From Kiloniellaceae bacterium (GTDB lineage Bacteria > Pseudomonadota > Alphaproteobacteria > Kiloniellales > J153), in the NCBI GenBank assembly GCA_021776115.1, contig JAJFGN010000068.1:665-64664 (forward strand): a stretch of DNA of 64,000 nt, read 5' to 3'. Under the pieces are notes generated by a model that saw nothing but the letters and a program-made list of their open reading frames with translations, did not search any database and was not told the DNA's origin. The position numbers and the translations under genes are program-made. Every line of letters begins with the position of its first letter. The first letter of the stretch is position 1. Positions 36,561 through 52,004 of this stretch are shown piece after piece.

Positions 36561-37436
36561 TTACCCAACTCGGCGAAGTTTGCTTTTGATCGGCACCTCA
36601 TCGGCCAACACGCGTTTGACACCATCGCCGTGGACGACAGGCCACATCGCGATATACTTCGACAGAAGGTCCATCCCTCGTGGCTCTAAGCTTGCCGCTT
36701 GGTCGCTGCCCCACATCGCTCTGTCCAGCGTGATATGCCGTTCGACAGCGCAGGCGCCGAACCCAGTTACGGCCATAATGGACGGCATAACGCCGACTTC
36801 ATGGCCGCTATAACCGAGCGGAAGGTTGTATCTTTCACGTAATGTATTGATCACTGACAGGTTGAGTTCATGGTCTTTAGATGGGTATGTCGACGTCGTG
36901 TGCATCAGCACCAGGTTCGCGCCGCGCAGTAATTCCACAGCATGATCGATCTCGTCTATGGTGCTCATACCGGTCGATAGAATGATCGGACGGCCGGTCG
37001 CCTTGATCCGTTTCAAAAGCCCATCGTCGGTTAGGCTCGCCGATGCGATCTTGTAGCAAACCGGATCGAAGGGTTCGAGAAAATCGACGCTGGTCTCATC
37101 CCATGGTGAGCAAAACCAATCGATCCCCTTTTCGCGGCAGTATCGGTCGATCTCCATATATTCGTCTTTCCCGAACTCCAAACCATGCTTGAGATCCCCG
37201 TTTGTCGTCCCAAACGGCGATTCGCGCGAGCGTGCGAGATCCTCCGGCGTGAAGACGATTTCTATGGTACGCTTCTGGAACTTGACGGCGCTGAACTTGT
37301 GCTCGACGGCCTTATCGATAAGTCGCCGGGCGATGTCGATGTCGCCGTTGTGATTAATGCCGATTTCTCCAATGAGATAGCAGGGTTCGCCGGGGCCGAC
37401 GCGCCGACCGCCAATTGTAATCGCTTTCTGCGTCAT
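36561..37436 (-). CDS. NeuB-family ulosonic acid (phosphate) synthase, short form lacking a SAF domain
   Basis: 291 aa. CYLIGEIGINHNGDIDIARRLIDKAVEHKFSAVKFQ, FCSPWDETSVDFL, YKIASASLTD, GRPIILSTGMSTIDEI and LMHTTSTYPS. The protein ends about 50-60 aa short of SAF-containing NeuB/PseI. Confidence 0.8.
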   Translation of the reverse strand: MTQKAITIGGRRVGPGEPCYLIGEIGINHNGDIDIARRLIDKAVEHKFSAVKFQKRTIEIVFTPEDLARSRESPFGTTNGDLKHGLEFGKDEYMEIDRYCREKGIDWFCSPWDETSVDFLEPFDPVCYKIASASLTDDGLLKRIKATGRPIILSTGMSTIDEIDHAVELLRGANLVLMHTTSTYPSKDHELNLSVINTLRERYNLPLGYSGHEVGVMPSIMAVTGFGACAVERHITLDRAMWGSDQAASLEPRGMDLLSKYIAMWPVVHGDGVKRVLADEVPIKSKLRRVG

Positions 37437-37482: not shown

Positions 37483-38910
37483 CTAAAGCGCGAGCTTTTC
37501 AGGCGGAACTCGATGGCTGTGGCTGAGGCCGGTTAACTCTTGCATTAGGGCCTGGCGGACGCGTTCACTGGATTTTCCATCCGCATTCCCCGTCCACTTG
37601 GCAAGGGCGGCAAGAGCTGCCGGACCAAGCTGCTCACGGATCGAGCTTGGCGATTGACAGTGACGCTCAATGCGGGCGACCAGATCCTCCACCGAACTCG
37701 CGTGTTCCACGGCGTCATGGAGTTCCACATTGAACCCATGATAACGAGGATCAAGGGCCTCTCCGAAATGCGGTACAACGACCGGCTTGTTGACGGCCAG
37801 TGCCTCAAGCAGAACCGTCGTATTGTGGCCGCAAACGACCCAACTGGCTTCAAGTAGCGGTGTCGCCTCGCCCGCTGCGACAATCCGGAGGTTCTTAGGG
37901 CGCTTTCCTTCCTGATCGAGCAAGGCCGCGACCTCGTCACGCTCATGGACACGAGGACGAACGATGACGTCGTAGGTGGGGTTTCTTTCCGCCAATAGGA
38001 TGGCCGCGCGGTAGGTGCCCCGGCAGAGTTCGTCCCATGCCAGGTCGCTGTCGATCCCAGAATAGCTGGGGAGGAAGTTGTTCGGTAGAAAGGCCAGCAG
38101 CAACACCGTCGGTTGTGGCGAGCGGAGGGGGACACTCCCCGCGGCGGCTAGCCGGCGCCATTTATGATTGCGATCGAGACGCGGCATGCCCACGATGGTG
38201 ATCTGATCGGGGCGGGCGATATACCCTTCGATTTGGTGATCGCGCTCCGACTCGTGGTAAACGAGCACCCGCCGACCAGTAAATTGCCCGCGTTCCTTGC
38301 GAAACAGTTCCCGCAGCATCTTACTTCTCTCTGGCGGCTTAATGCCTTCCTTGTGTAGCACGACGAATGGCGTTCCATTCGCTTCGAGCTCACTGGCAAG
38401 TTCGCGTTCCGCCCAATAACACCAGTTACCCGTCAGGACAGCGTCGTACCTCGACACCATCGACATATATCGCCAGATTTTCTTCCATAGCTTGCGATAG
38501 CGTTGCTTCGCCCGCGTGGCAGCAGGATCGTCGGAGATATAGGCATCGTCACCGCAAATGGTACGTGGCAATATGCCCAGTGCCAGCGACTTTAGTACCG
38601 CGCGCCTCACGCCAAACGCTTGAATCTCCTTCGCTTCGCCGAGGACTTCCAGCACATCTTCGACAAACACCGCCTTTTCAATTACCAGAACACGATGTGG
38701 TGCCGGGCCGCCGGTCAGTGGGCGGATCGTCTTGTGTATTAGGTACGCAGCCGGAAGCGCGAGCCCAAGCTTCGCCAGGATTGGCAACAGCGGCAATGCC
38801 ACGTCAAAACTGCTGCGCGCCTTGGCCAGCACCTTGATGAGGCGGTAGTAGTTCGTAAGCCTTTCGGCAATGTGGCTGAGACGAGGCGTCATCGATCGAT
38901 CGGCCTTCAT
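37483..38910 (-). CDS. GT-B-like hypothetical protein (degenerate HP motif)
   Basis: VIVRPRVHER followed by VVCGHNTTVLLEALAVNKPVV. Start moved from 39048 to ATG 38910 (MKADRSMT), which removes the overlap with the upstream gene. Confidence 0.35.
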   Translation of the reverse strand: MKADRSMTPRLSHIAERLTNYYRLIKVLAKARSSFDVALPLLPILAKLGLALPAAYLIHKTIRPLTGGPAPHRVLVIEKAVFVEDVLEVLGEAKEIQAFGVRRAVLKSLALGILPRTICGDDAYISDDPAATRAKQRYRKLWKKIWRYMSMVSRYDAVLTGNWCYWAERELASELEANGTPFVVLHKEGIKPPERSKMLRELFRKERGQFTGRRVLVYHESERDHQIEGYIARPDQITIVGMPRLDRNHKWRRLAAAGSVPLRSPQPTVLLLAFLPNNFLPSYSGIDSDLAWDELCRGTYRAAILLAERNPTYDVIVRPRVHERDEVAALLDQEGKRPKNLRIVAAGEATPLLEASWVVCGHNTTVLLEALAVNKPVVVPHFGEALDPRYHGFNVELHDAVEHASSVEDLVARIERHCQSPSSIREQLGPAALAALAKWTGNADGKSSERVRQALMQELTGLSHSHRVPPEKLAL

Positions 38911-38930
38911 GTCGTGTGCGGTGTGTGGTG

Positions 38931-40709
38931 TCAAACCGGCTGCAGTACGGCCGCGGATTTGCGGTCGCACTGGCTGTCCATCTGTCTCGGCACGGGAACG
39001 TGATTGCTGCCGTCCGCGGCAATGAATTCTCCCTGACGGGCCACCCACTCATCTTCGGAGCACGCCAAGGCGTCAATGAAGGGGAGGTAGCGTTCGATCC
39101 GGGCGGAACGAATCAGCTTGTGCAAGGGTTGTTCCCGCACGCTTGAGGGCTTGTGGTAGGGGAACGGCCATTGCATGACGAAGTGAAAAATGAAATGGAA
39201 CAGAGCCGCCTCCTTCGCCGCCTCCTGTTCGAACGGCGGAACTTCCGGCAATGCGGCGAGTCGGCGCAAGTGCGCGAAATACGCATCGGTCGATTCGCTA
39301 TCTACGGTAAAGCCCCGCCGACTGTAGTAGACAGTCGCACCGACCACGGCCGTCCTGCCCAGCATCGCCATTTCCATTCCGGTCGTCGAGGAAAAGACGA
39401 CACCAAACTGGCACTTCTCGATCAGGTTGTAGGTGTTCACGGCCTGATCTCCGGGAATCATGGTGAGTCGCTCATGCCCGTTGAAATCCGCAAGGGTTGC
39501 TTCACTACGCTCTTTGCCACCATAGGAGGCGGCTTCCCCGGGATGGGCCCGCACAACCACATGAATGTCGGTTTGCGTCAGCAAAAAGCGAACCGTTTGC
39601 AGTAGCCACTCTCTCATGCTGGGGAAAAGGCCCAGCAACGTGGAGTAACCGGCATCGTAAGGGACGTTGGTGCAGACCAGAACAAAGCGCCGGCCGTCCT
39701 CGACACCCGCAGCGCGCAACGTTTCCTCGAGGGTCTGATCGGGCGATTTCTGCAAAGCCCAACCCCAGTTGGCGGTGGAGGCGTGGCGGCGTTCGTCCAG
39801 CAAAGTCAGAGCGCGATTCACGGCGAAGCTTCGAAAAGGCTCGTTGTGATAGCCAAGCTCCTTGCGATGCCGCCAAGCGGCATCCACGTCGTTGAAGGCC
39901 AGAAAGTGATCGCCGTGGTTGAGCACTCTCACGCCCCGAAAGTCAAACTTCTCAAAGGCATTCACGGGCAGGCCCAGGGCCTTGGCCGTCTGACAGAATT
40001 GCGCCGTCTCGAAGGTGGCGCCATTGGGGACCAGGACCATATCGAAGTCGACCCGATGTCGTGATAAGTACGCCATGGCGATGGCTCGGGTATTGCGGGC
40101 CTGCGTCTTGTAGTAGGTCCATGCCGTCCTCACATCCGGGTCAGTCATATCGATGGTTTCGCGGCGGGTGTACATTATTGTGTCGCTGAGCACCTGCGCG
40201 TTTAGGACCTCTTTGTCGATCGAGATGTTCTCGACCGGGATGTCCGAGAGGTCGACGCAACGTAATCTGCCGCCACTCAGTCGTTTGACACGGCCGAGAA
40301 CTGCCCGCAGGTAGGGCTTCGCGCTCGGATGATCCTCGAGAGGTGGTTTGATGGGACTTTGCAATTTGGGCAGGTAGCCCATGGTAACGCTGTGTCCGCG
40401 CCAGGCCAGAAGAATGGCGACCATGAAATCGTGGGTGAACTGAATCCGGTAGGCGGTAAACAGAAAGATGCGCTTGGGCGGCGGCAACGGATAGGCGGGC
40501 GCCGCATTGAGAGCGCTCAGCCATGCCGGAAGGTGTGCGCTGAGCGACCACTTATCGTTTGGGGTCAGGCGGGTCACGACCGGCGCGAGCGCGAATATCA
40601 AACGCCGCGCAATCGGGCCCGGGTGGCGGTGGGCATAGATGTGGTCGGGAAGCCACTCCAGCCCTTGCCGCAGTCGACGCGCCAATCTTTGGGTGATGGT
40701 CAGGGACAC
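38931..40709 (-). CDS. GT-B-like protein with HP motif; candidate CMP-ulosonate transferase
   Basis: 592 aa. HVVVRAHPGEA followed about 55 aa later by VVFSSTTGMEMAMLGRTAVVGATVYY, which resembles the capsule-synthesis (KpsC/KpsS-type) C-terminal motif. Confidence 0.4.
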   Translation of the reverse strand: MSLTITQRLARRLRQGLEWLPDHIYAHRHPGPIARRLIFALAPVVTRLTPNDKWSLSAHLPAWLSALNAAPAYPLPPPKRIFLFTAYRIQFTHDFMVAILLAWRGHSVTMGYLPKLQSPIKPPLEDHPSAKPYLRAVLGRVKRLSGGRLRCVDLSDIPVENISIDKEVLNAQVLSDTIMYTRRETIDMTDPDVRTAWTYYKTQARNTRAIAMAYLSRHRVDFDMVLVPNGATFETAQFCQTAKALGLPVNAFEKFDFRGVRVLNHGDHFLAFNDVDAAWRHRKELGYHNEPFRSFAVNRALTLLDERRHASTANWGWALQKSPDQTLEETLRAAGVEDGRRFVLVCTNVPYDAGYSTLLGLFPSMREWLLQTVRFLLTQTDIHVVVRAHPGEAASYGGKERSEATLADFNGHERLTMIPGDQAVNTYNLIEKCQFGVVFSSTTGMEMAMLGRTAVVGATVYYSRRGFTVDSESTDAYFAHLRRLAALPEVPPFEQEAAKEAALFHFIFHFVMQWPFPYHKPSSVREQPLHKLIRSARIERYLPFIDALACSEDEWVARQGEFIAADGSNHVPVPRQMDSQCDRKSAAVLQPV

Positions 40710-40715
40710 CGAGGG

Positions 40716-42518
40716 TCAGCCTGCGTTCCGAAAATAGCCGGTCTTGATATTCGCGGCATAACTCGACGACGGTTCGGCCAACCATGCGCCTAGGCATTCG
40801 CGCTCGCGCGCCAGCGCCGGATCTCTCTCGCCATAGCGGTGTAGAATATCTTTGTAGAGGACCGGTCCGCTGGAATCACAGCGCATTTCGATTAGGCCAG
40901 CATCGGTCGGCGTTGGGGCTAGGGCAAGGGAGATCAGCGCCAGGGCGCGCTGGCGCCCCGCTTCATCCGGCGCTGGCAGGTCGTCAGCTGTCCGCAACAG
41001 CCGGATGTAGTCTTCTCGGGATACGGCTTGCTGAACGAAACCCCAATTGCCGTAGAAGCTGCGGTCAGCGGCGATTACGGGAAGTCCGTGCGCGGCAGCC
41101 TCGAGGCCCACTGTGCCATGCACTGTGACGACGATGTCGGCGGCGGTTAGGGCGGTGAGCGAATCCGTGTCCCGGGGGGCGAGGCGCACGTGCGACGGCA
41201 GATCGCCCACCATATCCTGCAGCCGGAAGCCCCCGTACCAGCTCTCGGCGGGATGCGGTTTCAAGACCCAGTCGATATCCGGGGCGGCGCACACTTCCGC
41301 CATGGTCAGGTGCATCCAGTCTAGGAAGTCCGTGAAGTTGCGCATGGCGAAAGTGTGCGGAAAATCGAACCAGACATGTGAATAGATGACGGCAAGCTTG
41401 CGTGCGCCGGTCACACCGAGGGCACGGCGTGCCTCGGCGCGCGAAGGCGCCTTAGAGTGCAGGCGGAACGCATAGCGGACGTTGATGTCCGTGCCCTGGC
41501 CCGACTCACGCCGCGCCAGGTACCGCGCCCCTTCCTCGGACAGCCTTTGCCGCACAATTGCGGGCAAAGCCTCAAATTCGCTTAGGCTCAGGTGCTCCAC
41601 CGGGGTTGCATAGTCGTTGGTATTGAAGAAACGACGAATGCGAATACCCTCGCAGTATCCAGTTAGGTGATGGGCGGGCACGCCGTGGGTCAGGGCTGCC
41701 CACATCAAGGTGGCGAACTCGTTCTTCCAGGGGTGGCTCACGATCACCTGGGCGACCGGCGCCGTTTCCAGCAAGTCCTGATAGATGGCGCAGTTCCGCA
41801 AGCACTCCGCCAGGGTGCGCTCCCATAACGGGTTGCCCAGCGCAGGCTGCGGGTGGCGCGCCAGCTTCAATACGGTGTCGTAGTAGGTATAGGCAGGCAG
41901 CCCCTCGGGTAGTGGCAGGGCCAGAACGTCGGCATGACAACGGACACCGGCAAGCAAAGCGCGGGCCTGGGGCCGAAAGGCCTCGGTGCGATGGCGCGGA
42001 TGGTCTTCGATGGCAATGAACTCAGTAAAGCCCAAGCTTTCCAGCGCCGGTCGGGTGCGGTCGCCGGTCCGGCCAAGAACACCGATCAAGCGCGTGGTCT
42101 CGATGCCAGGGAGGGCCTCAAGAAAAAGGCGCAATCGAAAGAAATGATTCGGGTTGTCCCACAATCCGTCCGCCACGACGGTCTGCGGTCCGGCGCCATT
42201 GGTGACGGGGCCGAGCTTGTCGTAGAGGTGGTTGACTCGTTGCCGATACCATTCTGTGTGCCACTGCCGTGCGAGCCGGGTTCCGGCTCGCGCCCAGGCC
42301 CCAGGGCTGGTGATCTTAGCCAGGATCCGGGTCATGCGGGCACGGCTGTCTGCAGTCGGCCGCGACAGCCATAGGCCCGGCTCATTGCGGCGAAGGCGGT
42401 CTCCTTGCCCTTCAACCCGCAGGGAGGCGGGAAGATGAATCTGGTCGCCAAGCCGCGGTGGAATGCTGGAGGGCTCACCCATTTGTCCGAATCTACTTGT
42501 CGTTGCGCCGGTCGACAA
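40716..42518 (-). CDS. GT-B-like protein with HP motif; candidate CMP-ulosonate transferase
   Basis: About 600 aa. [10 protein letters not shown] followed by [33 protein letters not shown]. Start uncertain (ATG at 42482 is an alternative). Confidence 0.4.
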
Positions 42519-43569
42519 AATCGAATTTCAGCGCCGTTCCGCGCTTGATCGACTGTGCCGCCCTTCGGCCGAGAACATCGCGCAAGTGCTTTGGCGCCAG
42601 GCCATAGCCGGGCCGGATGGAGCGGACATTGCGTGCCGTGAACGCCTCGCCCGCTGCAATATCTTCAACCACGTATAGCGAGCGGCGGAAGATTACATTC
42701 TGATGCTCGCTCTTCTTTCTCGTGTAGCCGGCCGTGCCCAGCGCATCCCAGGCGGTGCGGCAGTCACGCGCGAGGTCGGCCAGTTCGTCCTGCTCAAGCG
42801 AGAAGGTGGCATCTGGTCCGCCGTCAGCGCGGGACAGGGTGAAGTGCTTTTCGATGACGCAGGCACCCAGCGCAATAGCAGCCACGGATACCGCCGTGCC
42901 AAGGGTGTGATCGGATAGGCCGGTCAGGGTGTCGAAACGTCGTGTCATGTCCGGAATGGTTGTGAGGTTGTAATCCTCCGGCGGGGCCGGGTAGCCGCTG
43001 ACGCAATGCAGCAGGACGATGTTGGCGCATCCGGCGTCGCGCGCCACTCCCACGGCCTCGCTGATTTCCGTCTCGTCGGCCATGCCGGTGGAAATAATCA
43101 GGGGTTTCCCGGTCGCCGCGGCCTTGGCGATGAGCGCGTGGTCGATGGCCTCGAAGGAGGCAATTTTGTAGGCTGGCGCATCCAGGGACTCCAGGAAATC
43201 GACGGCCGTCTCATCGAAGGGACTGCTGAAGACCGTGATGCCTAGATCGCGTCCCTTGGCGAACAATGCCTCGTGCCATTCCCAGGGCGTGTGCGCCTCC
43301 TGATACAAATCGTAAAGCGTGCGCCCGTCCCACAGGCCGCCCTGTATCCGGAATTCTGGTCCGTCATGGTCGATGGTCAGGGTGTCGGCGGTATAGGTTT
43401 GCAGCTTGACCGCATTGGCCCCGGCGGCCTTTGCCGCGTCCATGAGGGCAAAGGCGCGATGGATATCACCATTGTGATTGCCCGACATCTCGGCGATGAC
43501 GTAGGGCGAATATCCTGGTCCGATCGGGCGGCCGTCGATCGCAATCGCGATGTCTTTATCGTTTCTCAC
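42493..43569 (-). CDS. pseI: Pseudaminic acid synthase
   Basis: [58 protein letters not shown] and [11 protein letters not shown], plus a C-terminal SAF-like segment ([27 protein letters not shown]). GTG start with GTGA overlap at 43566-43569. Confidence 0.85.
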
Positions 43570-45056
43570 GGCATTGGCCGGGGTTCGCTAACATAATGGC
43601 TGGCATCGACGGGGCGGTAGCCGGCACGCTTGAACAACCTATGCGATGCTGCGTTGCCGGGCAGCACTTCTGCCACCAGGCGCGCGCCGGGAAAAAGCGC
43701 GCGCCCCAGCGACAACGCGGCGGTGGCGATGCCGAGGCCATATTTGTCCGGATCGACGAGGACCGAGACCTCGTAGATATCGGAGTCTTCCGCCCGGTCC
43801 AAGCGCAGCACGCCAGCAGGTGCCCGATCATGCAGGACGAGGCACAGGACACGGTTTGGGTCGCCTAAGGATGCCTGCACCCAGGCCTTGTGCTCGTCGT
43901 TGGTTGGCGATCGAGGCGTGCGAGCATAGTGCCGTGTCTGGTCGGCGGCTTGCCAGCGAAACATGACCTCGGTATCCGCTGCCAAGGCCAAGCGCAGCGA
44001 CACGACGTTCCCGTCACGGGCGCGCGTAGTGGGCAGCAGCGCGCAAAGGGTTCTAAGCGTACCCCTGCCGTCACACAGCTGCGCCGCCCGTTCGCGCATG
44101 CCGAGAAGATCGCCGCTATCCGCGGCCAGATCGTTGATAGCGCGGGCAACCGCCGCCGGCGTCAAGGTATCGCTCCGCCCCAGGAGCCGTGCAGCACCAG
44201 TCCTCGCCAGTTCCTTGGCGGTCAGGTTCTGATTGTCGGCGGCGGTCACGACGAGGCTCGGCACGCCAAGGCAGCACCGCTCCCAAGTCGATATGCCGGC
44301 TGCGCCGATTGCGAGATCCGCGCGTATCATCAGGCCGGCCATATCCGTGACCTGGGCATGAAACTCGACGGCCTGCGCCATGGTATCGGCAAGGCTGCGC
44401 AAACCTTCGCCATGGGGCGAGGCCGCCCCAATCACCACATCCACGGCGGCGTCGATGCCGCTTTGGGCAATGCCTTCAAGAACGATCCTCGTAATGTTGT
44501 GCGGGTCGCTGGCGCCAAGACTCACAAGAATCTGCCGCATATACGGGCTTTCACGCCGCCGCCCCAGAGCTTGCGTCCGTGCCGCGGCAAACTGCGGGCG
44601 CAAAAGGGCGAACCGGGAGCCCAGAAGCAGGTAGCACCCGGTGGGAACGAGCGGCCGATAGTCGTCTTCCCGCCGTCCGGGAGCCTGGTCCAGAAGGAGA
44701 TCGCAATCGTGGCAACGATCAGCGAGATCGTCGATGACCATGATACGCTGTGCCCACGGCCGGCACGCGGTCTCGAATTTGGCATCGCGTTCGTAGTGAT
44801 CCACGATCATGAGATCGCATCCTTGTGGCCAACGACGGAACAGGGCCGCCGCTTCGTCGCCGAAGTCCGCATCAAGCTGGGCGATTTGGTGCTGGCCTTC
44901 TAACAAGGCTGGGATAACGACCGTAGTCTCTGCGGCGCAGGCAAACGCGCATGTCCAACCAGCCGCGCTCAGCGCGTCGGCGAGGGCAAGGCACCGCATC
45001 GCGTGTCCACCGCCGATGTGCGCGGAAGCTTCAACCCTTATAACCGCGAAGGGTAT
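43566..45056 (-). CDS. pseG: Fused PseG (UDP-2,4-diacetamido-2,4,6-trideoxy-beta-L-altropyranose hydrolase) / PseH-like GNAT acetyltransferase
   Basis: GT-B PseG-like body and a C-terminal GNAT ([19 protein letters not shown]...[13 protein letters not shown]). The first canonical ATG is at 44999. The frame stays open upstream and encodes the conserved PseG N-terminus (I)[18 protein letters not shown], so I place the start at ATA 45056 (see finding). End and frame are secure; the start is not. Confidence 0.75.
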
Positions 45057-45060
45057 GGCG

Positions 45061-45687
45061 CTATCCCTTCCTGAACAGCCACCACGTCAGATTGTCGAGG
45101 CCGGTCGCGCGCTTCCAGAAGAAGCCGTAGTCCAACAGCGTCAGGTCTGAGTGGCCAGTCATCCAGAAATCTCCGAAGTCCCGCCTGAACAATAATCCGG
45201 CATGACCGCGGTAGGGAATTTCCTCTTCCTTGTCGGAAAAGTACTCGCAGCACATGATGTACTTCGACGACACGCGGTGGATTTCCTTGCACGCCTGCGC
45301 GAGGTCGCCAGGTGCGATGTGGATCAGTACGCCGCTGGTGAAAGCCATATCGAACTCGCCGTCCGCGAAGGGCAAGTCGCCGGCCGCCGCATCGAAGACA
45401 GCCTCCTTCGGAAGAACCCCGTCGCCGACCAGCCGTTCGCGGGCGTCGGGATTGGGCTCGACGGCGGTCCGGCGCGCGGTGGTCAGCTGCTTCAGCGCCC
45501 GCATGTTGAGCCCGAGGTTGGCGCCGACCTCAAGAATACTTTTCGGTTCATCGCCGACGAGCGGGTCGAGAATGCGTGCCCACATACGCGCACGTGCGCA
45601 TAGCGCCACATCGTCGGCAACATTGCGCTTCGTATACTCATCACCGAAATCGCCGCGCCAAGCGTCCAATTGTTTGGTTCCGGTCAT
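45061..45687 (-). CDS. Pseudaminic-acid-biosynthesis-associated methylase family protein
   Basis: 208 aa. N-terminal QLDAWRGDFGDEYTKRN and ILEVGANLGLNMRAL match my recollection of the Pse-cluster-associated methylase family. Sits between the cytidylyltransferase and pseG. Confidence 0.65.
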   Translation of the reverse strand: MTGTKQLDAWRGDFGDEYTKRNVADDVALCARARMWARILDPLVGDEPKSILEVGANLGLNMRALKQLTTARRTAVEPNPDARERLVGDGVLPKEAVFDAAAGDLPFADGEFDMAFTSGVLIHIAPGDLAQACKEIHRVSSKYIMCCEYFSDKEEEIPYRGHAGLLFRRDFGDFWMTGHSDLTLLDYGFFWKRATGLDNLTWWLFRKG

Positions 45688-45699
45688 ACCGGTTCTCGC

Positions 45700-46440
45700 C
45701 TATGCTCTTGATATTGTGGTTCGGCCGCGATCGCCCATGTGCGCGTTGATCGCGGTGATTTCGGGGTGTTTGGCTATCACAGCCATGACCGCGTCGTATC
45801 CGGCGATGGCCGGGCCTGCCGGGAGGTGGGTAAACACCGTGCGAAAAAACTCCATATCCTCTGGAAAATCGAGAGTCCAGCGCATGAATTCCGTCTCGCC
45901 TCCCGGGCCGGGCAGGGCGGCGCGCTTGACCCCGGGCTGGGTACGTAGCCACGGAGTGACGTGTTCGCGCTCGTAGCAATCATTGGACTGCTGTGCCGCA
46001 CGGTCCAAGGCGCTGCGCGTGAACGCCTCGCAGTCGAGACCATGAGGCCAGGCGGGCGGCATGTTGTTGCATGCATAGTCGGCACCCTCCGCTGCGAGCA
46101 AATCCAAGACCCGGGCATTGATGTCCGGGTCACTCAATGGGCAATCGGAGGTGACGCGCATGATGATCGTAGCGCCGATAGCATCGGCAGCAACCTTGAA
46201 CCTGCCGAGTACATCGGTTTCGGAACCGCGCACCACCGTGGCGCCGCAGCGTTCCGCTTCCCGGGCGACACCGTCGGAGTCCTCGGTGTTCGGAATGGCG
46301 CAGCACACGTTGTCAATACCTCGAGTGACGCGACATCGCTCGATCACATGCGACAGCACGCTTCGGTCCGCAAGGTCTTTCAGCACTTTGCCGGGTAAAC
46401 GAGTGGATCCAAATCGCGCCTGTATGATGGCGGCCTGCAA
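45700..46440 (-). CDS. Cytidylyltransferase of the SpsF/COG1861 type (CMP-pseudaminic acid synthetase candidate)
   Basis: (M)QAAIIQARFGSTRLPGKVL, RVTSDCPL and RWTLDFPEDMEFF. Start moved from 46584 to TTG 46440, preceded by AGGA, which removes a 134-nt overlap with the upstream gene. Confidence 0.7.
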   Translation of the reverse strand: MQAAIIQARFGSTRLPGKVLKDLADRSVLSHVIERCRVTRGIDNVCCAIPNTEDSDGVAREAERCGATVVRGSETDVLGRFKVAADAIGATIIMRVTSDCPLSDPDINARVLDLLAAEGADYACNNMPPAWPHGLDCEAFTRSALDRAAQQSNDCYEREHVTPWLRTQPGVKRAALPGPGGETEFMRWTLDFPEDMEFFRTVFTHLPAGPAIAGYDAVMAVIAKHPEITAINAHMGDRGRTTISRA

Positions 46441-46450
46441 TGAGCCTATC

Positions 46451-47206
46451 CTAAATTCGCGTGGCAAAACCTTGTTCGCGCAGATACAGCTTGGCTTCGC
46501 ACGGCGTCTGCTCCGTGAAATGGAACATACTCGCTGCGGCCAGGGCCGATGCGCCGGCACGCAAGGCTTCCGCCATGTGCGCATAGTTACCAGCGCCGCC
46601 CGATGCGATTACCGGAATCGAAACCGCTTCCGCAACCTGCGAAATCAGGTCGACGTCATAGCCTTGCATCGTGCCATCCCTGTCCACCGAAGTGATGAGG
46701 ATCTCGCCGGCACCTAACGATTCGACACGCTGCGCCAGCGCGATCGGGCCAAGGCCGGTCGGCTGCGTGCCCGATTCAACGTAAACTTCGTAGCTCTCCT
46801 GGCCGTTTTTTTTGACATCGATCGACACCACCACGCATTGGCTTCCGAACTGTTTGGCAATCTCGCCGATTAGCTGCGGGCGACTCACCGCGGCTGTGTT
46901 CACGACAATTTTGTCGGCACCGACCTGGAGCAATTTACGCACATCGTCAAGGTTGCGGATGCCTCCGCCCACGGCGAGCGGCATGAAGCATTCGTCCGCC
47001 AAATCGTCGATGAGGTCGAAATCGGGGGCGCGCCCCTCGCGCGTCGCGGCGATATCTAGGAAGACCAGTTCGTCGACTTCGCGCATGTTGTAAACTTTCA
47101 CCGCCTGCATGGCGCTGCCGACCCGGCGCCAAGAGTCAAATCCGGCACCTTTGACAAGCGTCGTGTCCTTGTAGAGCAGTGTCGGCATGATTCGAGTCTT
47201 GAGCAT
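46451..47206 (-). CDS. HisF-like cyclase subunit (imidazole-glycerol-phosphate-synthase-like, glycan-cluster paralog)
   Basis: RIMPTLLYKDTTLVKG, DELVFLDI, PLAVGGGIRNLDDV and IPVIASGGAG. Confidence 0.85.
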   Translation of the reverse strand: MLKTRIMPTLLYKDTTLVKGAGFDSWRRVGSAMQAVKVYNMREVDELVFLDIAATREGRAPDFDLIDDLADECFMPLAVGGGIRNLDDVRKLLQVGADKIVVNTAAVSRPQLIGEIAKQFGSQCVVVSIDVKKNGQESYEVYVESGTQPTGLGPIALAQRVESLGAGEILITSVDRDGTMQGYDVDLISQVAEAVSIPVIASGGAGNYAHMAEALRAGASALAAASMFHFTEQTPCEAKLYLREQGFATRI

Positions 47207-48985: not shown

Positions 48986-50204
48986 TTGGATATTTCAGAT
49001 CGAGAGCCGCTGCGAGACATTCGACAACGCGATCGGCATCGCCATCGCTCATGCTTGGGAACAGCGGCAGCGATAGGCAGCGGGCGTAGTAGGCATCGGC
49101 TCCAGGTAGGGTGGAGTCTCCGTAGCGCTGCCGATAGTATGGCTGATTATGCACTGGTATATAGTGAACTTGCGCGCCGATACCGCTTTCTTTCAGGTGA
49201 TTGATGACCGTCGCCCGCTCCACGCCTGCAGCCTCGAAGTCAATCAACACAACAAAGAGATGCCAGGCGGTTGTGCAGTTCGCCACCCGCCCGATCGGGC
49301 GAACCCGCGGGGCGAGCGGCGCCAATAGCGTGTCATAACGAGCTGCAAGTTCACGTCGCCGCGCGACGAACTTGTCCAGCTTGCCGAGTTGACTCAGCCC
49401 AAGAGCACAATTGATATCGCTGGCTCGGTAGTTGAAACCGGGTTCCAGCATCTCGTAATACCAGGGATTGGGTCCTCCATTGTGGTCGAACGCCAATTCG
49501 CGATTGAAAAATTTTTCAGGCGCGCGAGTCATCCCGTGGCTACGCAATGTGCGGAGCTTCTCGTAGAGGTCCGCGTCGTTGGTCGTCACCATGCCACCTT
49601 CGCCCATGGCAATCGTCTTAACCGGGTGAAAGGAAAAAACGGCCATGTCCGAGTGACGGCAGGACCCCACGGCAAACTGTTCGTTCCCCGCCCGATACGC
49701 CGTGCCGACGGCGTGACAGGCGTCCTCCACGATCGCCATATCGCGGTCACGGGCGATACGTGAAAGCGCCACCATGTCGACTGTCTGACCATTGAGATGC
49801 ACGGGAAACACGGCACGAGGCGTGGTAGTTAAGCCCTCCGCGGCCTCTCGCAGAGTGTCCGGCGACATCAAGCCGGTTTCCGGGTCGACATCGCAGAACG
49901 TGACTTCCCCGCCAACGTAGCGCGCGGCATTGGCTGTCGCAAGAAAAGTCATCGTTGGGACAATCACCTGGTCGCCTTCGCCAAGATCGAGGGCCAGTGC
50001 AGCAAGGTGCAGGCCCGCTGTTCCATTGGAACAGGCCACCGCATAGCGGGCACTGACCTTTTCGGCAAAGGCCGTCTCGAACTTTTCGATCGTCGGTCCG
50101 GTGGTGAGCCAGTCACTCCTAAGCACAGCAACAACTGCGGCTACGTCGTCGTCGTCAATACATTGACGGCCATATGGAAGAAACGAAGGGGGGGCTGTGT
50201 TCAA
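48978..50204 (-). CDS. pseC: UDP-4-amino-4,6-dideoxy-N-acetyl-beta-L-altrosamine transaminase (DegT/DnrJ/EryC1 family)
   Basis: FLPYGRQCIDDDDVAAVVAVLRSDWLTTGP, AVACSNGTAGLHLA and SFHPVKTIAMGEGG (PLP lysine). Start moved to TTG 50204 (TTGA overlap with the pseB stop at 50201-50203). Confidence 0.85.
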   Translation of the reverse strand: MNTAPPSFLPYGRQCIDDDDVAAVVAVLRSDWLTTGPTIEKFETAFAEKVSARYAVACSNGTAGLHLAALALDLGEGDQVIVPTMTFLATANAARYVGGEVTFCDVDPETGLMSPDTLREAAEGLTTTPRAVFPVHLNGQTVDMVALSRIARDRDMAIVEDACHAVGTAYRAGNEQFAVGSCRHSDMAVFSFHPVKTIAMGEGGMVTTNDADLYEKLRTLRSHGMTRAPEKFFNRELAFDHNGGPNPWYYEMLEPGFNYRASDINCALGLSQLGKLDKFVARRRELAARYDTLLAPLAPRVRPIGRVANCTTAWHLFVVLIDFEAAGVERATVINHLKESGIGAQVHYIPVHNQPYYRQRYGDSTLPGADAYYARCLSLPLFPSMSDGDADRVVECLAAALDLKYPNG

Positions 50205-51226
50205 ACAGTTGTTTCCTGCAACAGCTTCGCCAGAGCAATATCGTCCAGCCATTCGTCGTTCGTATTCGACGCATATCGAAAACCTTCGGGCACCAACGAG
50301 CAGTCTGAATAGTTATCGCTATTCCAGAATTTTAAAGCGGGCTGGATGACATAGCGGTCGGGTAGGTATCCCGTCGTTCGCGCATCATCCTCGGTGATCA
50401 TCACTTCGTGCATTTTTTCACCGGGCCGAATGCCGATTACCTTGATCGGCAAATTCGGGGCCATAACGCGAGCCATATCGGTGATTTTGGTGCTGGGGAT
50501 CTTCGGCACGAATATCTCGCCGCCGTGCATAATCGCGAGAGACGAGAGTACGAAATCGACGCCTTGGCGCAGGGTGATCCAGAATCGGGTCATGCGTTCA
50601 TCCGTGATCGGCAAGTGGTCGGCATGCTCCGCGATTAGACGGCGAAATAGAGGCACAATGCTGCCGCGCGAGCCAATGACATTGCCGTAGCGCACGACGG
50701 AGAACGCGGTGACGCCACCGCTCAGATTGTTGGCGGCAACGAAAATCTTGTCTGAGGCAAGCTTGCTGGCACCGTAAAGATTGATTGGACTTGCTGCCTT
50801 GTCTGTGGAGAGAGCCAGGACCTTGCTCACACCGCTCCGGATTGCGGCTTTTACGACGTTCTCGGCTCCCAGGACGTTTGTGTGAATGCATTCGAACGGG
50901 TTGTACTCGGCCGCCGGTACGTGTTTGAGAGCGGCGGCATGGACGACGAGATTCACGCCGCGCATGGCCATTTCCAGTCTGTCGACATCGCGCACGTCGC
51001 CGATGAAGTAGCGCATGCAGGGATGACGTGTGTCGTCGAACTCCTGCGCCATCTCGTACTGTTTCATCTCGTCGCGGGAGAAAACGATAAGCCTGGCCGG
51101 CTTGTGGTGCGACAAAACGGTTCGCACGAACGCGCGTCCAAAGGAGCCCGTTCCGCCAGTCACAAGAACTGACTTTCCGTTCAAATCGAGGTTGGCGTTG
51201 TTGAAGTCGCGAAAAGGAAACGTCAT
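50201..51226 (-). CDS. pseB: UDP-N-acetylglucosamine 4,6-dehydratase (inverting)
   Basis: LNGKSVLVTGGTGSFGRAFV, LIVFSRDEMKQYEM, GDVRD, VVHAAALKHVP and YGASKLASDK. Start moved from 51472 to ATG 51226 (MTFPFRDFNN). Confidence 0.9.
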   Translation of the reverse strand: MTFPFRDFNNANLDLNGKSVLVTGGTGSFGRAFVRTVLSHHKPARLIVFSRDEMKQYEMAQEFDDTRHPCMRYFIGDVRDVDRLEMAMRGVNLVVHAAALKHVPAAEYNPFECIHTNVLGAENVVKAAIRSGVSKVLALSTDKAASPINLYGASKLASDKIFVAANNLSGGVTAFSVVRYGNVIGSRGSIVPLFRRLIAEHADHLPITDERMTRFWITLRQGVDFVLSSLAIMHGGEIFVPKIPSTKITDMARVMAPNLPIKVIGIRPGEKMHEVMITEDDARTTGYLPDRYVIQPALKFWNSDNYSDCSLVPEGFRYASNTNDEWLDDIALAKLLQETTV

Positions 51227-52004
51227 GTCAGCTCGTCTTGAGTTCAGCTGCCGTTCCGAGTGCTGGGGTGCGTACTGTGGTGCGCAATTGCAAATGCGGC
51301 CAACCCCGTATCCCCCTGGTTTGTTCGGCGGGAGTTTCGGAGCGATAGCAGGAAAAAAATGGTGTATATCAGAATAGCTACCGCACTCTGAGTGAAATCC
51401 AAAATTTCGCCCGAGTGGTGCTCTAATAGATATCTGGCCCCCAAAATCGAGGGTGACGATCCAATATCTCAAGTATCAATAGATGGCAAGCCTATTGGTG
51501 CTAGGGCCCAGCTTGCGGCGGACACTAGCAGAAACTGGAGGAAATTACTGATAGATCCGCCCTGGATTGGAATAGAGTGGGTAGCTCACTTTATCTACCG
51601 GTTGCTCGAACTGGACCGGCCTTCTGTGTCAGCACGCCTATTGGAGTCGAACTGGATCTGCAGGAGCCGTAGATGTAGCGCGCCAGGGCGATCTCGACGC
51701 CCTGAACCGAGGATCTATAATGCCAGCGAGGGCCCCAACGGCACGTCCCGGATTTACCCCCTGGTCATCCCCTCACTCGCAAGTAGCACGCACGCCCCGC
51801 TAGGCCCCCGGGGTATTTTGCCCCTCTTCGCCCCCTTCCGCCCCCCTGTGCCGGCGGCTTTTCCGCCCGCCTGGTACCTGGGGCGTACTCTTGCGGATAT
51901 TTTGCCGGGCGAACCGAAATTGAATGACAGGGCTGCCGCGGGATGCCAATTAAACCTCTACGCCTTTTTGCCCGATGGCCAGCCCGGTTTTCAGCGCATA
52001 TTGC
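51227..52004. promoter_or_regulatory. About 780-bp divergent non-coding region between pseB and the FAD oxidoreductase; should hold the promoter(s) of the pse-led operon
   Basis: No convincing ORF in any frame. Contains an AT-richer stretch (about 51340-51620), a 10-bp direct repeat (51606-51615 / 51647-51656) and a C-run tract (51795-51846). No -35/-10 elements assigned. Confidence 0.4.
51606..51656. repeat. Direct repeat TCGAACTGGA x2, 41 bp start-to-start
   Basis: Exact 10-mers at 51606-51615 and 51647-51656 (GCTCGAACTGGACC / AGTCGAACTGGATC). Confidence 0.8.

Follow-up and report, generated by a model that had tools for sequence, protein, structure and literature searches.

The 64,000-nucleotide stretch of DNA analyzed here (the window; contig JAJFGN010000068.1 of a Kiloniellaceae bacterium) harbored a minus-strand run of genes with pseudaminic acid (Pse) context, which included PseC, PseI, and PseB equivalogs scoring above cutoff, a cytidylyltransferase gene scoring below the PseF cutoff, a Pse biosynthesis-associated methylase gene, WbuX/HisH/HisF genes, and a fused gene designated pseG–pseH (Table 1). 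PseG is UDP-2,4-diacetamido-2,4,6-trideoxy-beta-L-altropyranose hydrolase. The methylase gene and pseG–pseH were co-directional, with the proposed initiation codon of the latter, ATA, located 4 nt past the methylase stop. The protein deposited for pseG–pseH had 477 amino acids and began at an internal ATG (Met20 when ATA is counted as residue 1), so that it contained no strand beta-1, no Gly-rich loop, and no invariant His.

Table 1. Features of the methylase–pseG–pseH junction and their coordinates in the window
Feature	Coordinates	Strand	Remarks
pseG–pseH CDS, re-annotated	43566..45056	-	496 codons plus stop; PseG about residues 1–340, GNAT residues 354–481
ATA, proposed pseG–pseH initiation codon (position 1)	45054..45056	-	in frame, 19 codons 5′ of the first ATG
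Codons 2–19: beta-1 (residues 3–7), Gly-rich loop, and His18	45000..45053	-	pN/pS, 3HBM alignment, AF2 model
Gly-rich loop GGG	45014-45006	-	codons within 2–19
His18, invariant	45005-45003	-	aligned with His17 of 3HBM
ATG of Met20, first canonical start and gene-caller choice	44997..44999	-	internal family-conserved Met (H-x-M-R-C)
GGTGGA, Gly-loop codons, SD mimic	45011-45006	-	6 nt 5′ of the Met20 ATG
Second in-frame ATA (codon 6)	45041-45039	-	CTC or TTC in relatives
Methylase TAG stop	45061..45063	-	ATA 4 nt further 3′
Intercistronic spacer CGCC, 4 nt	45057..45060	-	varies in relatives: CGCC, AGCC, TGCG, CGCG, CACG
AGGAAGGGA, SD-like purine run	45064..45072	-	last methylase codons (R-K-G), 7–12 nt 5′ of ATA
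AGGAAGG within the SD-like run	45072-45066	-	9 nt 5′ of ATA
Pse biosynthesis-associated methylase gene	45061..45687	-	TIGR03587, 161 bits vs cutoff 112
In-frame TGA closing the pseG frame 5′	45087..45089	-	inside the methylase coding sequence

An earlier note on this DNA had placed the first ATG, GTG, or TTG of the pseG–pseH ORF at the Met20 ATG, had described the frame as open further upstream to the in-frame TGA with none of these three codons in between, and had set ATA 4 nt past the methylase TAG and 9 nt past AGGAAGG; all these placements held when checked on the minus strand of the sequence (Table 1).

With ATA counted as residue 1, the predicted protein matched TIGR03590 (the NCBIfam PseG equivalog) at 265.1 bits versus a cutoff of 153.55, and profile positions 4–279 of 280 corresponded to its residues 5–282; the family N-terminus was therefore expected within one residue of ATA, in agreement with the earlier proposal that ATA sits where the start Met of PseG should be. 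The AF2 model of the 496-residue protein had a mean pLDDT of 93.2, and its N-terminus displayed a strand at residues 3–7 and a helix from residue 17 (pLDDT about 94). The fold was GT-B (MurG-like): top Foldseek matches were the Campylobacter jejuni PseG structures 3HBM and 3HBN, with MurG structures next in rank, and the best structural match was 3HBM with a TM of 0.80. The gene product and C. jejuni PseG shared the equivalog HMM, the fold, and the N-terminal strand-GxGH motif, while the gene studied here differed in its C-terminal GNAT fusion and its non-canonical start codon. The GNAT domain scored 26 bits versus the PseH equivalog cutoff of 93, and it was presumed to be PseH. His18 aligned to His17 of 3HBM, which starts 16 residues ahead of that His, and the His was found in the N-terminus of every relative listed; the PseG N-terminus described in the earlier note (beta-strand, Gly-rich loop, and His) was correct. 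A catalytic role for His17 was reportedly put forward in the 2009 paper on the C. jejuni PseG structure. The strand, loop, and His are retained in the product only if translation begins at or near ATA.

The sequence comparison was then applied to the start region of relatives, all of them metagenome-derived. The alignment-based contig search returned relatives of at most 51% identity only, the search of genome contigs with a single protein gave no match, and the close clade was found by exact-protein look-ups. This close clade (clade A: the window, L001, L002, L003, L004, and L165) had 75–100% amino acid identity and a bootstrap of 100, and its codon homologous to ATA was ATA in the window and L001, ATC in L002 and L003, and ATT in L004 and L165; these variations need only about two third-position changes, and avoidance of ATG within clade A is therefore statistically undemonstrable. 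At this codon, L171 (58% identity) carried ATC. Clade B (L006 and L169; 64% identity to each other, about 47–49% to the window, bootstrap 100) likewise had ATC and no canonical start; its exact start was ambiguous because other in-frame ATH codons lay nearby (an ATA overlapping the stop, plus an ATC at codon 5 in L006), and the NCBI annotation of the L006 homologue MCR9137415.1 begins at the latter, downstream ATC. L167 and L168 (about 62–64% identity) had GTG exactly at the ATA-homologous codon. The codon at this site lay a few nucleotides past the preceding stop in each group: (i) TAG in clade A and L171 (spacing +4 in the window, L002, L003, L004, L165, and L171); (ii) TAA in clade B (+5 in L006/L169); and (iii) TGA in L167 and L168 (GTG at +6). 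Among distant relatives, 152 of 157 had a canonical start 14–30 codons ahead of the His (ATG 106, GTG 33, and TTG 13; mode 16–17), and ATA, at 17 codons ahead of the His, matched the modal relatives.

An all-ATH monophyletic group was recovered in 0/200 bootstraps, and AUH was kept in eight distinct sequences from three lineages (one ATA, five ATC, and two ATT; the duplicate L001 excluded). By these alignments, the AUH codon sits at the ancestral start position, and ATA/ATC/ATT is conserved in at least two separate clades. The pattern exceeds chance on the same comparative basis: AT[A/C/T] always fell at the start position of relatives, in three lineages.

Codons 2–19 displayed pS of 0.398 and pN of 0.078, giving pN/pS of 0.20 in the pseG frame, versus 6.96 and 1.51 when read in the two alternative frames; pN/pS was 0.31 over the remainder of PseG. 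Codons 2–5 (P-F-A-V) contained neither synonymous nor non-synonymous changes in clade A. Judged by these substitution patterns, the 19 N-terminal codons are translated and constrained.

It is very unlikely that the true start is Met20 or that the gene is decaying into a pseudogene; in both cases PseG would be devoid of its first strand (beta-1), Gly loop, and His. Met20 is the sole canonical start available, it is preceded at 6 nt by the SD-like GGTGGA, and every gene caller chose it; however, this motif is merely part of the codons for the GGGH loop, and Met20 was called likewise in L167, L168, and L170 although GTG/TTG starts plainly exist further 5′ in these loci, which points to a systematic annotation artefact. 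In the model, a Met20 start would also leave the N-terminal domain without its first strand and helix 1 without its N-cap, and it would delete the His common to all relatives listed. The suggestion that functional PseG proteins commonly begin at this position (MRCL) was contradicted by the 152 distant starts ahead of the His and by the N-terminus of the crystallised enzyme. A truncated, inactive gene, which the earlier note had listed as a possibility, was excluded by the purifying selection on codons 2–19, seen in the pseG frame only; these codons form beta-1 and the helix 1 N-cap in the confident model. Some initiation at Met20 may occur as well.

Non-canonical initiation at another codon of the open stretch, e.g., the ATA at codon 6, is judged highly improbable. 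Codon 6 is likewise ATA in this genome, and the NCBI pipeline took a downstream codon (ATC, codon 5) in the L006 homologue; however, close relatives have CTC or TTC at this position, which excludes it as a shared start, and starting there would discard most of strand beta-1 as well as the four preceding codons, which are invariant in clade A.

It is extremely unlikely that a programmed +1 frameshift close to the methylase 3′ end yields a methylase–PseG–PseH fusion in which ATA would be an internal Ile codon. Such a shift would fit with the pseG frame being open for 11 codons 5′ of ATA and overlapping the methylase 3′ end, with an SD-like run ahead of the stop as in prfB, with natural in-frame fusions of an upstream gene to PseG (PseF–PseG, L026/L027), and with a possible slippery site, A_AAG_GGC, seen by eye in the L169 overlap. 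Against it, (i) the offset varied: clade A and L171 had +1, clade B had -1, and in L167/L168 the two ORFs shared one frame (offset 0) interrupted by a stop; (ii) by eye, clade A had no recognised +1 shift site, and GGA-TAG re-pairs poorly; (iii) the L006 overlap was just 4 codons and contained no slippery site; and (iv) the constant feature was an ATH codon at the ancestral start, while a fusion gives no cause to keep Ile. Inspection of the junction sequences by eye across clades revealed no shared shift site.

That ATA is a miscall at its third base, 45054, for a true ATG has a negligible probability: this takes only one transition, and the window source is probably a metagenome-assembled genome, but an independent Logan assembly of SRR15505516 (L001) displayed the identical ATA, while seven other loci from different samples had ATC or ATT (ATC, ATC, ATT, ATT, and ATC in the five diverged relatives, which had 58–85% identity) and none had ATG, and the same miscall could not turn ATG into ATC or ATT, so that the G-to-A assembly error raised in the earlier note is excluded.

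It is considered highly probable that pseG–pseH is intact and starts at ATA as a near-cognate AUH codon, probably via termination–reinitiation after the methylase. Near-cognate initiation or re-initiation was the one option of the earlier note to gain support, which came from the ATH/GTG codons of relatives, the constraint on the N-terminus, and the exclusion of alternatives. Initiator tRNA would decode ATA as fMet despite a mismatch at the third base, and the product would be a 496-residue enzyme retaining strand beta-1, the Gly-rich loop, and the invariant His. With ATA located 4 nt past the methylase stop and 7–12 nt past the SD-like run, the most likely route would be re-initiation at ATA by ribosomes that have completed the methylase, or local recruitment of a 30S subunit there; PseG–PseH would then be made at a low level linked to translation of the methylase. 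Initiation probably takes place at ATA itself and would depend on coupling to the methylase, and weak or coupled expression of pseG–pseH may be under selection.

The promoter scan found no promoter-like sites between the methylase gene and pseG, with terminator-like sites at chance level, and the Rfam and tRNA scans returned nothing relevant. A survey for generally relaxed start use, covering a small sample of 56 long ORFs in the window, found no other gene with an in-frame ATH just past the preceding stop and a long open leader. Two further candidate features of the junction were considered. Firstly, the K-G C-terminus (AAGGG) was also present in methylases with no adjacent 3′ pseG; conservation of the SD-like run is thereby confounded, and selection for this run is inseparable from the conserved methylase C-terminus. 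Secondly, an RNA hairpin masking the SD and the start (GAAGGG/CCCTTC by RNAalifold) displayed no compensatory changes and was broken in 3/6 sequences; single-sequence folds of the junction gave z-scores of -1.4 to +1.9 and inconsistent structures, and the hairpin was rejected. A conserved RNA structure for unfolding-type coupling was not supported.

Initiation at AUA, AUC, and AUU in Escherichia coli runs at about 1–2% of that at AUG, and AUH codons are weak initiators there, with a span of roughly 0.02–3% (bioRxiv 10.1101/063800). By analogy, the closest counterpart of the pseG–pseH start is infC, whose AUU start in E. coli lies 3 nt past the thrS stop (PMC3592434). The two shared a conserved AUH codon a few nt past the preceding stop (UAA GGU AUU in infC versus UAG CGCC AUA here) and an SD (here an SD-like run) inside the 3′ end of the upstream gene (PMC3592434, PMC2830850, PMC5499595). 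They differed in that the AUU of infC is a sensor for IF3 autoregulation, whereas pseG–pseH encodes a sugar-pathway enzyme unlinked to the translation machinery, and in that close relatives of pseG interchange all three AUH codons. In Deinococcus, dnaA has an ATC start identified by N-terminal proteomics, and infC has an ATA start (PMC2830850). The AUU of E. coli pcnB and the ATC of Deinococcus dnaA resembled the present case in being starts of genes for non-translation factors, in being required for a conserved N-terminus, and in having been initially missed by annotation; AUH has also been suggested to limit or control expression, which is documented in the case of pcnB (PMC2830850; PMC3592434). 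Those two starts are backed by N-terminal proteomics and mutagenesis, whereas that of pseG–pseH is backed by comparative sequence evidence; the tight putative stop–start coupling is distinctive of pseG–pseH. Termination–reinitiation coupling is known for galT–galK and rplK–rplA at +3 nt spacing (PMC12548453). The methylase–pseG pair resembled these in being co-directional and in its spacing of +4 (+5/+6 in relatives), which is inside the efficient coupling range (PMC12548453), but the start codons are canonical in galT–galK and rplK–rplA, and at pseG no inhibitory RNA structure was found.

Conserved AUH starts are already known, and pseG–pseH adds another gene to them. It may serve as a clear comparative example of AUH being kept as the start of a gene unrelated to the translation machinery, and one that recurs in separate clades; the interchange of AUH codons, their recurrence, and their position just past a stop make it a convenient natural test of relaxed stringency in re-initiating ribosomes. 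A more specific proposal is that AUH is a selected, coupling-dependent start used solely or chiefly by ribosomes that come straight from termination on the methylase, and this is offered tentatively, as a possibility that is rather doubtful on present evidence. If it were true, PseG–PseH would be made in a small, constant proportion to the methylase, two or more separate Pse-locus lineages would have acquired or retained this state, always at +4 or +5 nt, and post-termination ribosomes would accept near-cognate starts that free, IF3-policed 30S subunits reject.

The comparison also exposed a systematic annotation error, in which many PseG proteins are called from an internal Met. The codons of the Gly-rich loop (GGN GGN GGN CAY, followed after 3 nt by ATG) look like a ribosome-binding site, which misleads gene-calling programs. 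Such internal-Met calls were found in 18 among the 120 best homologues. DNA was checked for 10 of these 18 (all except P0010, P0028, P0038, P0044, P0053, P0065, P0083, and P0109), and the 10 fell into two groups: (i) seven had AUH at the start position, and (ii) three had a missed GTG or TTG. Database sequences used for cloning or modelling of these enzymes are predicted to give dead protein.

The methylase-pseG junction in the window was read on the minus strand: the methylase ORF ended in CTG ACG TGG TGG CTG TTC AGG AAG GGA TAG, followed by the spacer CGCC and then by the pseG frame, which ran through the Gly-rich loop as ATA CCC TTC GCG GTT ATA AGG GTT GAA GCT TCC GCG CAC ATC GGC GGT GGA CAC GCG ATG CGG TGC. 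As the earlier note had claimed, this ATG (Met20) was the first canonical start of pseG-pseH, the frame was open back to an in-frame TGA with no ATG, GTG, or TTG between the two, and the ATA lay closely behind the methylase stop and an SD-like AGGAAGG; all three points were confirmed in the sequence. Judged from the comparisons below, the ATA would very probably be the real start of pseG-pseH.

Features of the Pse locus in the window
Feature	Position	Strand	Remarks
PseB ORF	50201-51472	minus	PseB match begins at residue 97 of first-start ORF
Cytidylyltransferase adjoining methylase	45700-46584	minus	PseF equivalog 20.9 bits vs cutoff 205.7 bits
Pseudaminic-acid-associated methylase ORF	45061-45687	minus	TIGR03587, 161 bits vs cutoff 112
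In-frame TGA closing pseG frame	45089-45087	minus	
Methylase stop TAG	45063-45061	minus	end of upstream ORF
ATA candidate start	45056-45054	minus	4 nt past TAG, 9 nt past AGGAAGG
Loop codons GGC GGT GGA CAC GCG with Met20 ATG	44997-45014	minus	SD-like GGTGGA 6 nt before conserved Met codon
First canonical start ATG (Met20)	44999	minus	
C-terminal GNAT domain of fusion	43614-43997	minus	PseH equivalog 26 bits vs cutoff 93; matches Pfam Acetyltransf_3
Three large ORFs	37483-42518	minus	521, 592, and 600 aa; immediately follow pseI; family assignment none or weak
Second NeuB/PseI-like ORF	36561-37436	minus	291 aa; under NeuB and PseI cutoffs; downstream of Pse genes

With ATA as residue 1, residues 5-282 matched positions 4-279 of the 280-position PseG equivalog profile, and F5...H17 of the Campylobacter jejuni PseG crystal structure 3HBM aligned with I6...H18, making the window protein longer by one residue than the experimentally studied enzyme. 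The AlphaFold2 model of the 496-residue protein was confident (pLDDT 93.2), placed the first strand at residues 3-7 and helix 1 from residue 17, and had 3HBM and 3HBN as best structural matches (TM 0.80). Starting at Met20 would cost the protein its first strand, its Gly-rich loop, and His18, a residue found in all alignable N-termini of relatives and reported to be catalytic in a 2009 structure paper on C. jejuni PseG. A common start of functional PseG proteins at the internal Met (MRCL), named in the earlier note as a refuting result, was not borne out: among distant relatives with alignable N-termini, 152/157 had a canonical start 14-30 codons before the His (ATG 106, GTG 33, and TTG 13; mode 16-17 codons), and the window ATA lay 17 codons before it.

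A protein search yielded a tight clade (75-85% identity) whose members were all called from the internal Met or further downstream, and their DNA was read at position 1, the codon homologous to the ATA: ATC in L002 (85% identity) and L003 (79%), and ATT in L004 (78%) and L165 (about 76%), while L001, from an independent Logan assembly, had the same ATA as the window. The more distant L171 (58%) also had ATC, 4 nt past TAG, in a frame without canonical start. L006 (2501-2560, JANSYK010000002.1, a 1.9-Mb MAG contig), which belongs to the five exceptions in the set of 157 distant relatives, had ATC 5 nt past the methylase TAA, likewise without canonical start, and L169 (64% identical to L006) had the same arrangement; in both, an in-frame ATA overlapped the TAA (ATAA; compare the common ATGA overlap). 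Canonical starts were missing at the expected place in three further loci: (i) L137 (about 100-170), with a likely start at CTG, 21 codons ahead of the His and 6 nt past AGGAG; (ii) L039 (about 2440-2504), with CTG at 22 codons or TTG at 34; and (iii) L051 (about 2420-2500), with a degenerate N-terminus without beta-1 sequence, which may be damaged.

In a neighbour-joining tree (200 bootstraps), the window and its close relatives (clade A: L001-L004 and L165) had 100% support, as did clade B (L006/L169), which fell outside a 94% group composed of clade A, L167/L168, L171/P0010, P0009 (ATG start), and P0038; monophyly of all sequences with AUH (AUA, AUC, or AUU) at position 1 was recovered in 0/200 replicates. 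Given these separate clades, AUH either had two or more origins or was retained for long with reversions. At about 62-64% identity, L167 and L168 belong to the well-supported group that includes the window; both had GTG at position 1, 6 nt past the methylase TGA, and the sequence comparison places AUH at the ancestral start position. The methylase stop lay 4-5 nt upstream of AUH in 8/8 AUH loci, while other loci with an adjacent methylase had ATG or GTG at spacings of -4 to +8; tight juxtaposition was thus ancestral, and AUH appeared within it.

A methylase-PseG fusion by frameshifting has a parallel in L026 (596-1470) and L027 (1676-2550), apparently in-frame PseF-PseG fusions by their sequence, but it fails: the frame offset between methylase and pseG varied by clade (+1, -1, or 0), no shared slippery site was seen in the junction sequences read by eye, and it would leave unexplained why AUH stays fixed where the ancestral start was. 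In L026 and L027 the PseG frame was open 291 codons upstream and cytidylyltransferase-like (VAVVVQARF.STRLPGK...); GTG at the PseG start position was present in L026 and lost in L027. The truncated, inactive gene offered by the earlier note was ruled out by constraint: across clade A, synonymous changes at third positions were frequent in codons 2-19 and replacements scarce (pS 0.398, pN 0.078, pN/pS 0.20), versus pN/pS of 6.96 and 1.51 in the other two frames. These codons are therefore translated in frame with pseG, under constraint like that on the remainder of PseG (0.31). Its G-to-A assembly error was ruled out by six distinct sequences, taken from different samples, that had among them three Ile-type codons at position 1 and in no case ATG, with L001 repeating the ATA.

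Initiator tRNA is able to decode all three AUH codons, which are selected against by IF3. For initiation at the ATA, post-termination ribosomes from the methylase would supply much of pseG initiation; that coupling is required seems somewhat doubtful, and no conserved hairpin making it obligatory was found at the junction. Selection for an SD role of the run ahead of ATA was not demonstrable. In Escherichia coli reporters AUA, AUC, and AUU gave ~1-2% of AUG (bioRxiv 10.1101/063800), near-cognate efficiency being strongly context-dependent (PMC5499595), and coupling works best where stop and start lie very close together, with classical examples at +3 nt (PMC12548453). Conserved AUH starts are known in infC, pcnB, and Deinococcus dnaA (PMC3592434, PMC2830850), and the infC junction (UAA GGU AUU) was the closest analogue (PMC3592434). 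Such starts being already known, pseG-pseH was a well-supported new member; limited full-text searches found no published mention of an AUH start in the PseG family. It offers a useful natural case for the study of near-cognate starts coupled to an upstream stop, and a recurrent PseG mis-annotation gets a concrete correction.

The internal Met of H-x-M-R-C was the called start in 18 of the best 120 homologous proteins (P0001-P0004, P0007, P0008, P0010, P0011, P0021, P0028, P0038, P0044, P0053, P0055, P0065, P0066, P0083, and P0109). DNA was read for ten of them: seven had AUH at position 1 (P0001-P0004, P0011, P0055, and P0066), and three had a missed GTG or TTG (P0007, P0008, and P0021); at locus level, L167, L168, and L170 had an overlooked GTG or TTG 19-22 codons upstream. 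These calls are a systematic gene-caller artefact, arising from the SD-like GGTGGA that the Gly-loop codons (GGN GGN GGN CAY) place 6 nt upstream of the Met. In L165 (2755-3001; P0005), the caller chose a TTG lying 63 codons past the internal Met, despite an intact frame that holds both the position-1 ATT and the Met20 ATG (database protein 414 aa vs 496). NCBI already annotates the L006 protein MCR9137415.1 (P0121) from a non-canonical ATC, but from the one at codon 5 (MFRADAG...) and not the position-1 ATC, so that the deposited protein probably lacks four residues.

The junction lies within an operon for Pse biosynthesis, with same-strand genes for PseB, PseC, a WbuX-type amidotransferase, HisH-like and HisF-like proteins, the cytidylyltransferase, the methylase, the PseG-GNAT fusion, and PseI; from this context the GNAT domain is presumably PseH. 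The cytidylyltransferase, far under the PseF cutoff, was closer to KdsB-type enzymes, and its first-start ORF (294 aa) was ~48 residues longer than in close relatives, where 246-248 aa are called. The true start of PseB probably lies downstream of the listed TTG, and the ORF as listed overlapped pseC by ~50 nt. For the second NeuB/PseI-like ORF, the match went no further than position 277 of the 329-position profile, and the C-terminal SAF region is therefore apparently absent. The three large ORFs, with weak assignments including surface carbohydrate biosynthesis protein and Capsule_synth, occupy conserved places in L002, L004, and L165; they may be the transferases using CMP-Pse. In L004 (4449-5500), a frameshift or assembly error in that contig breaks pseI into separate ORFs of 206 and 151 aa, each of which matched NeuB.
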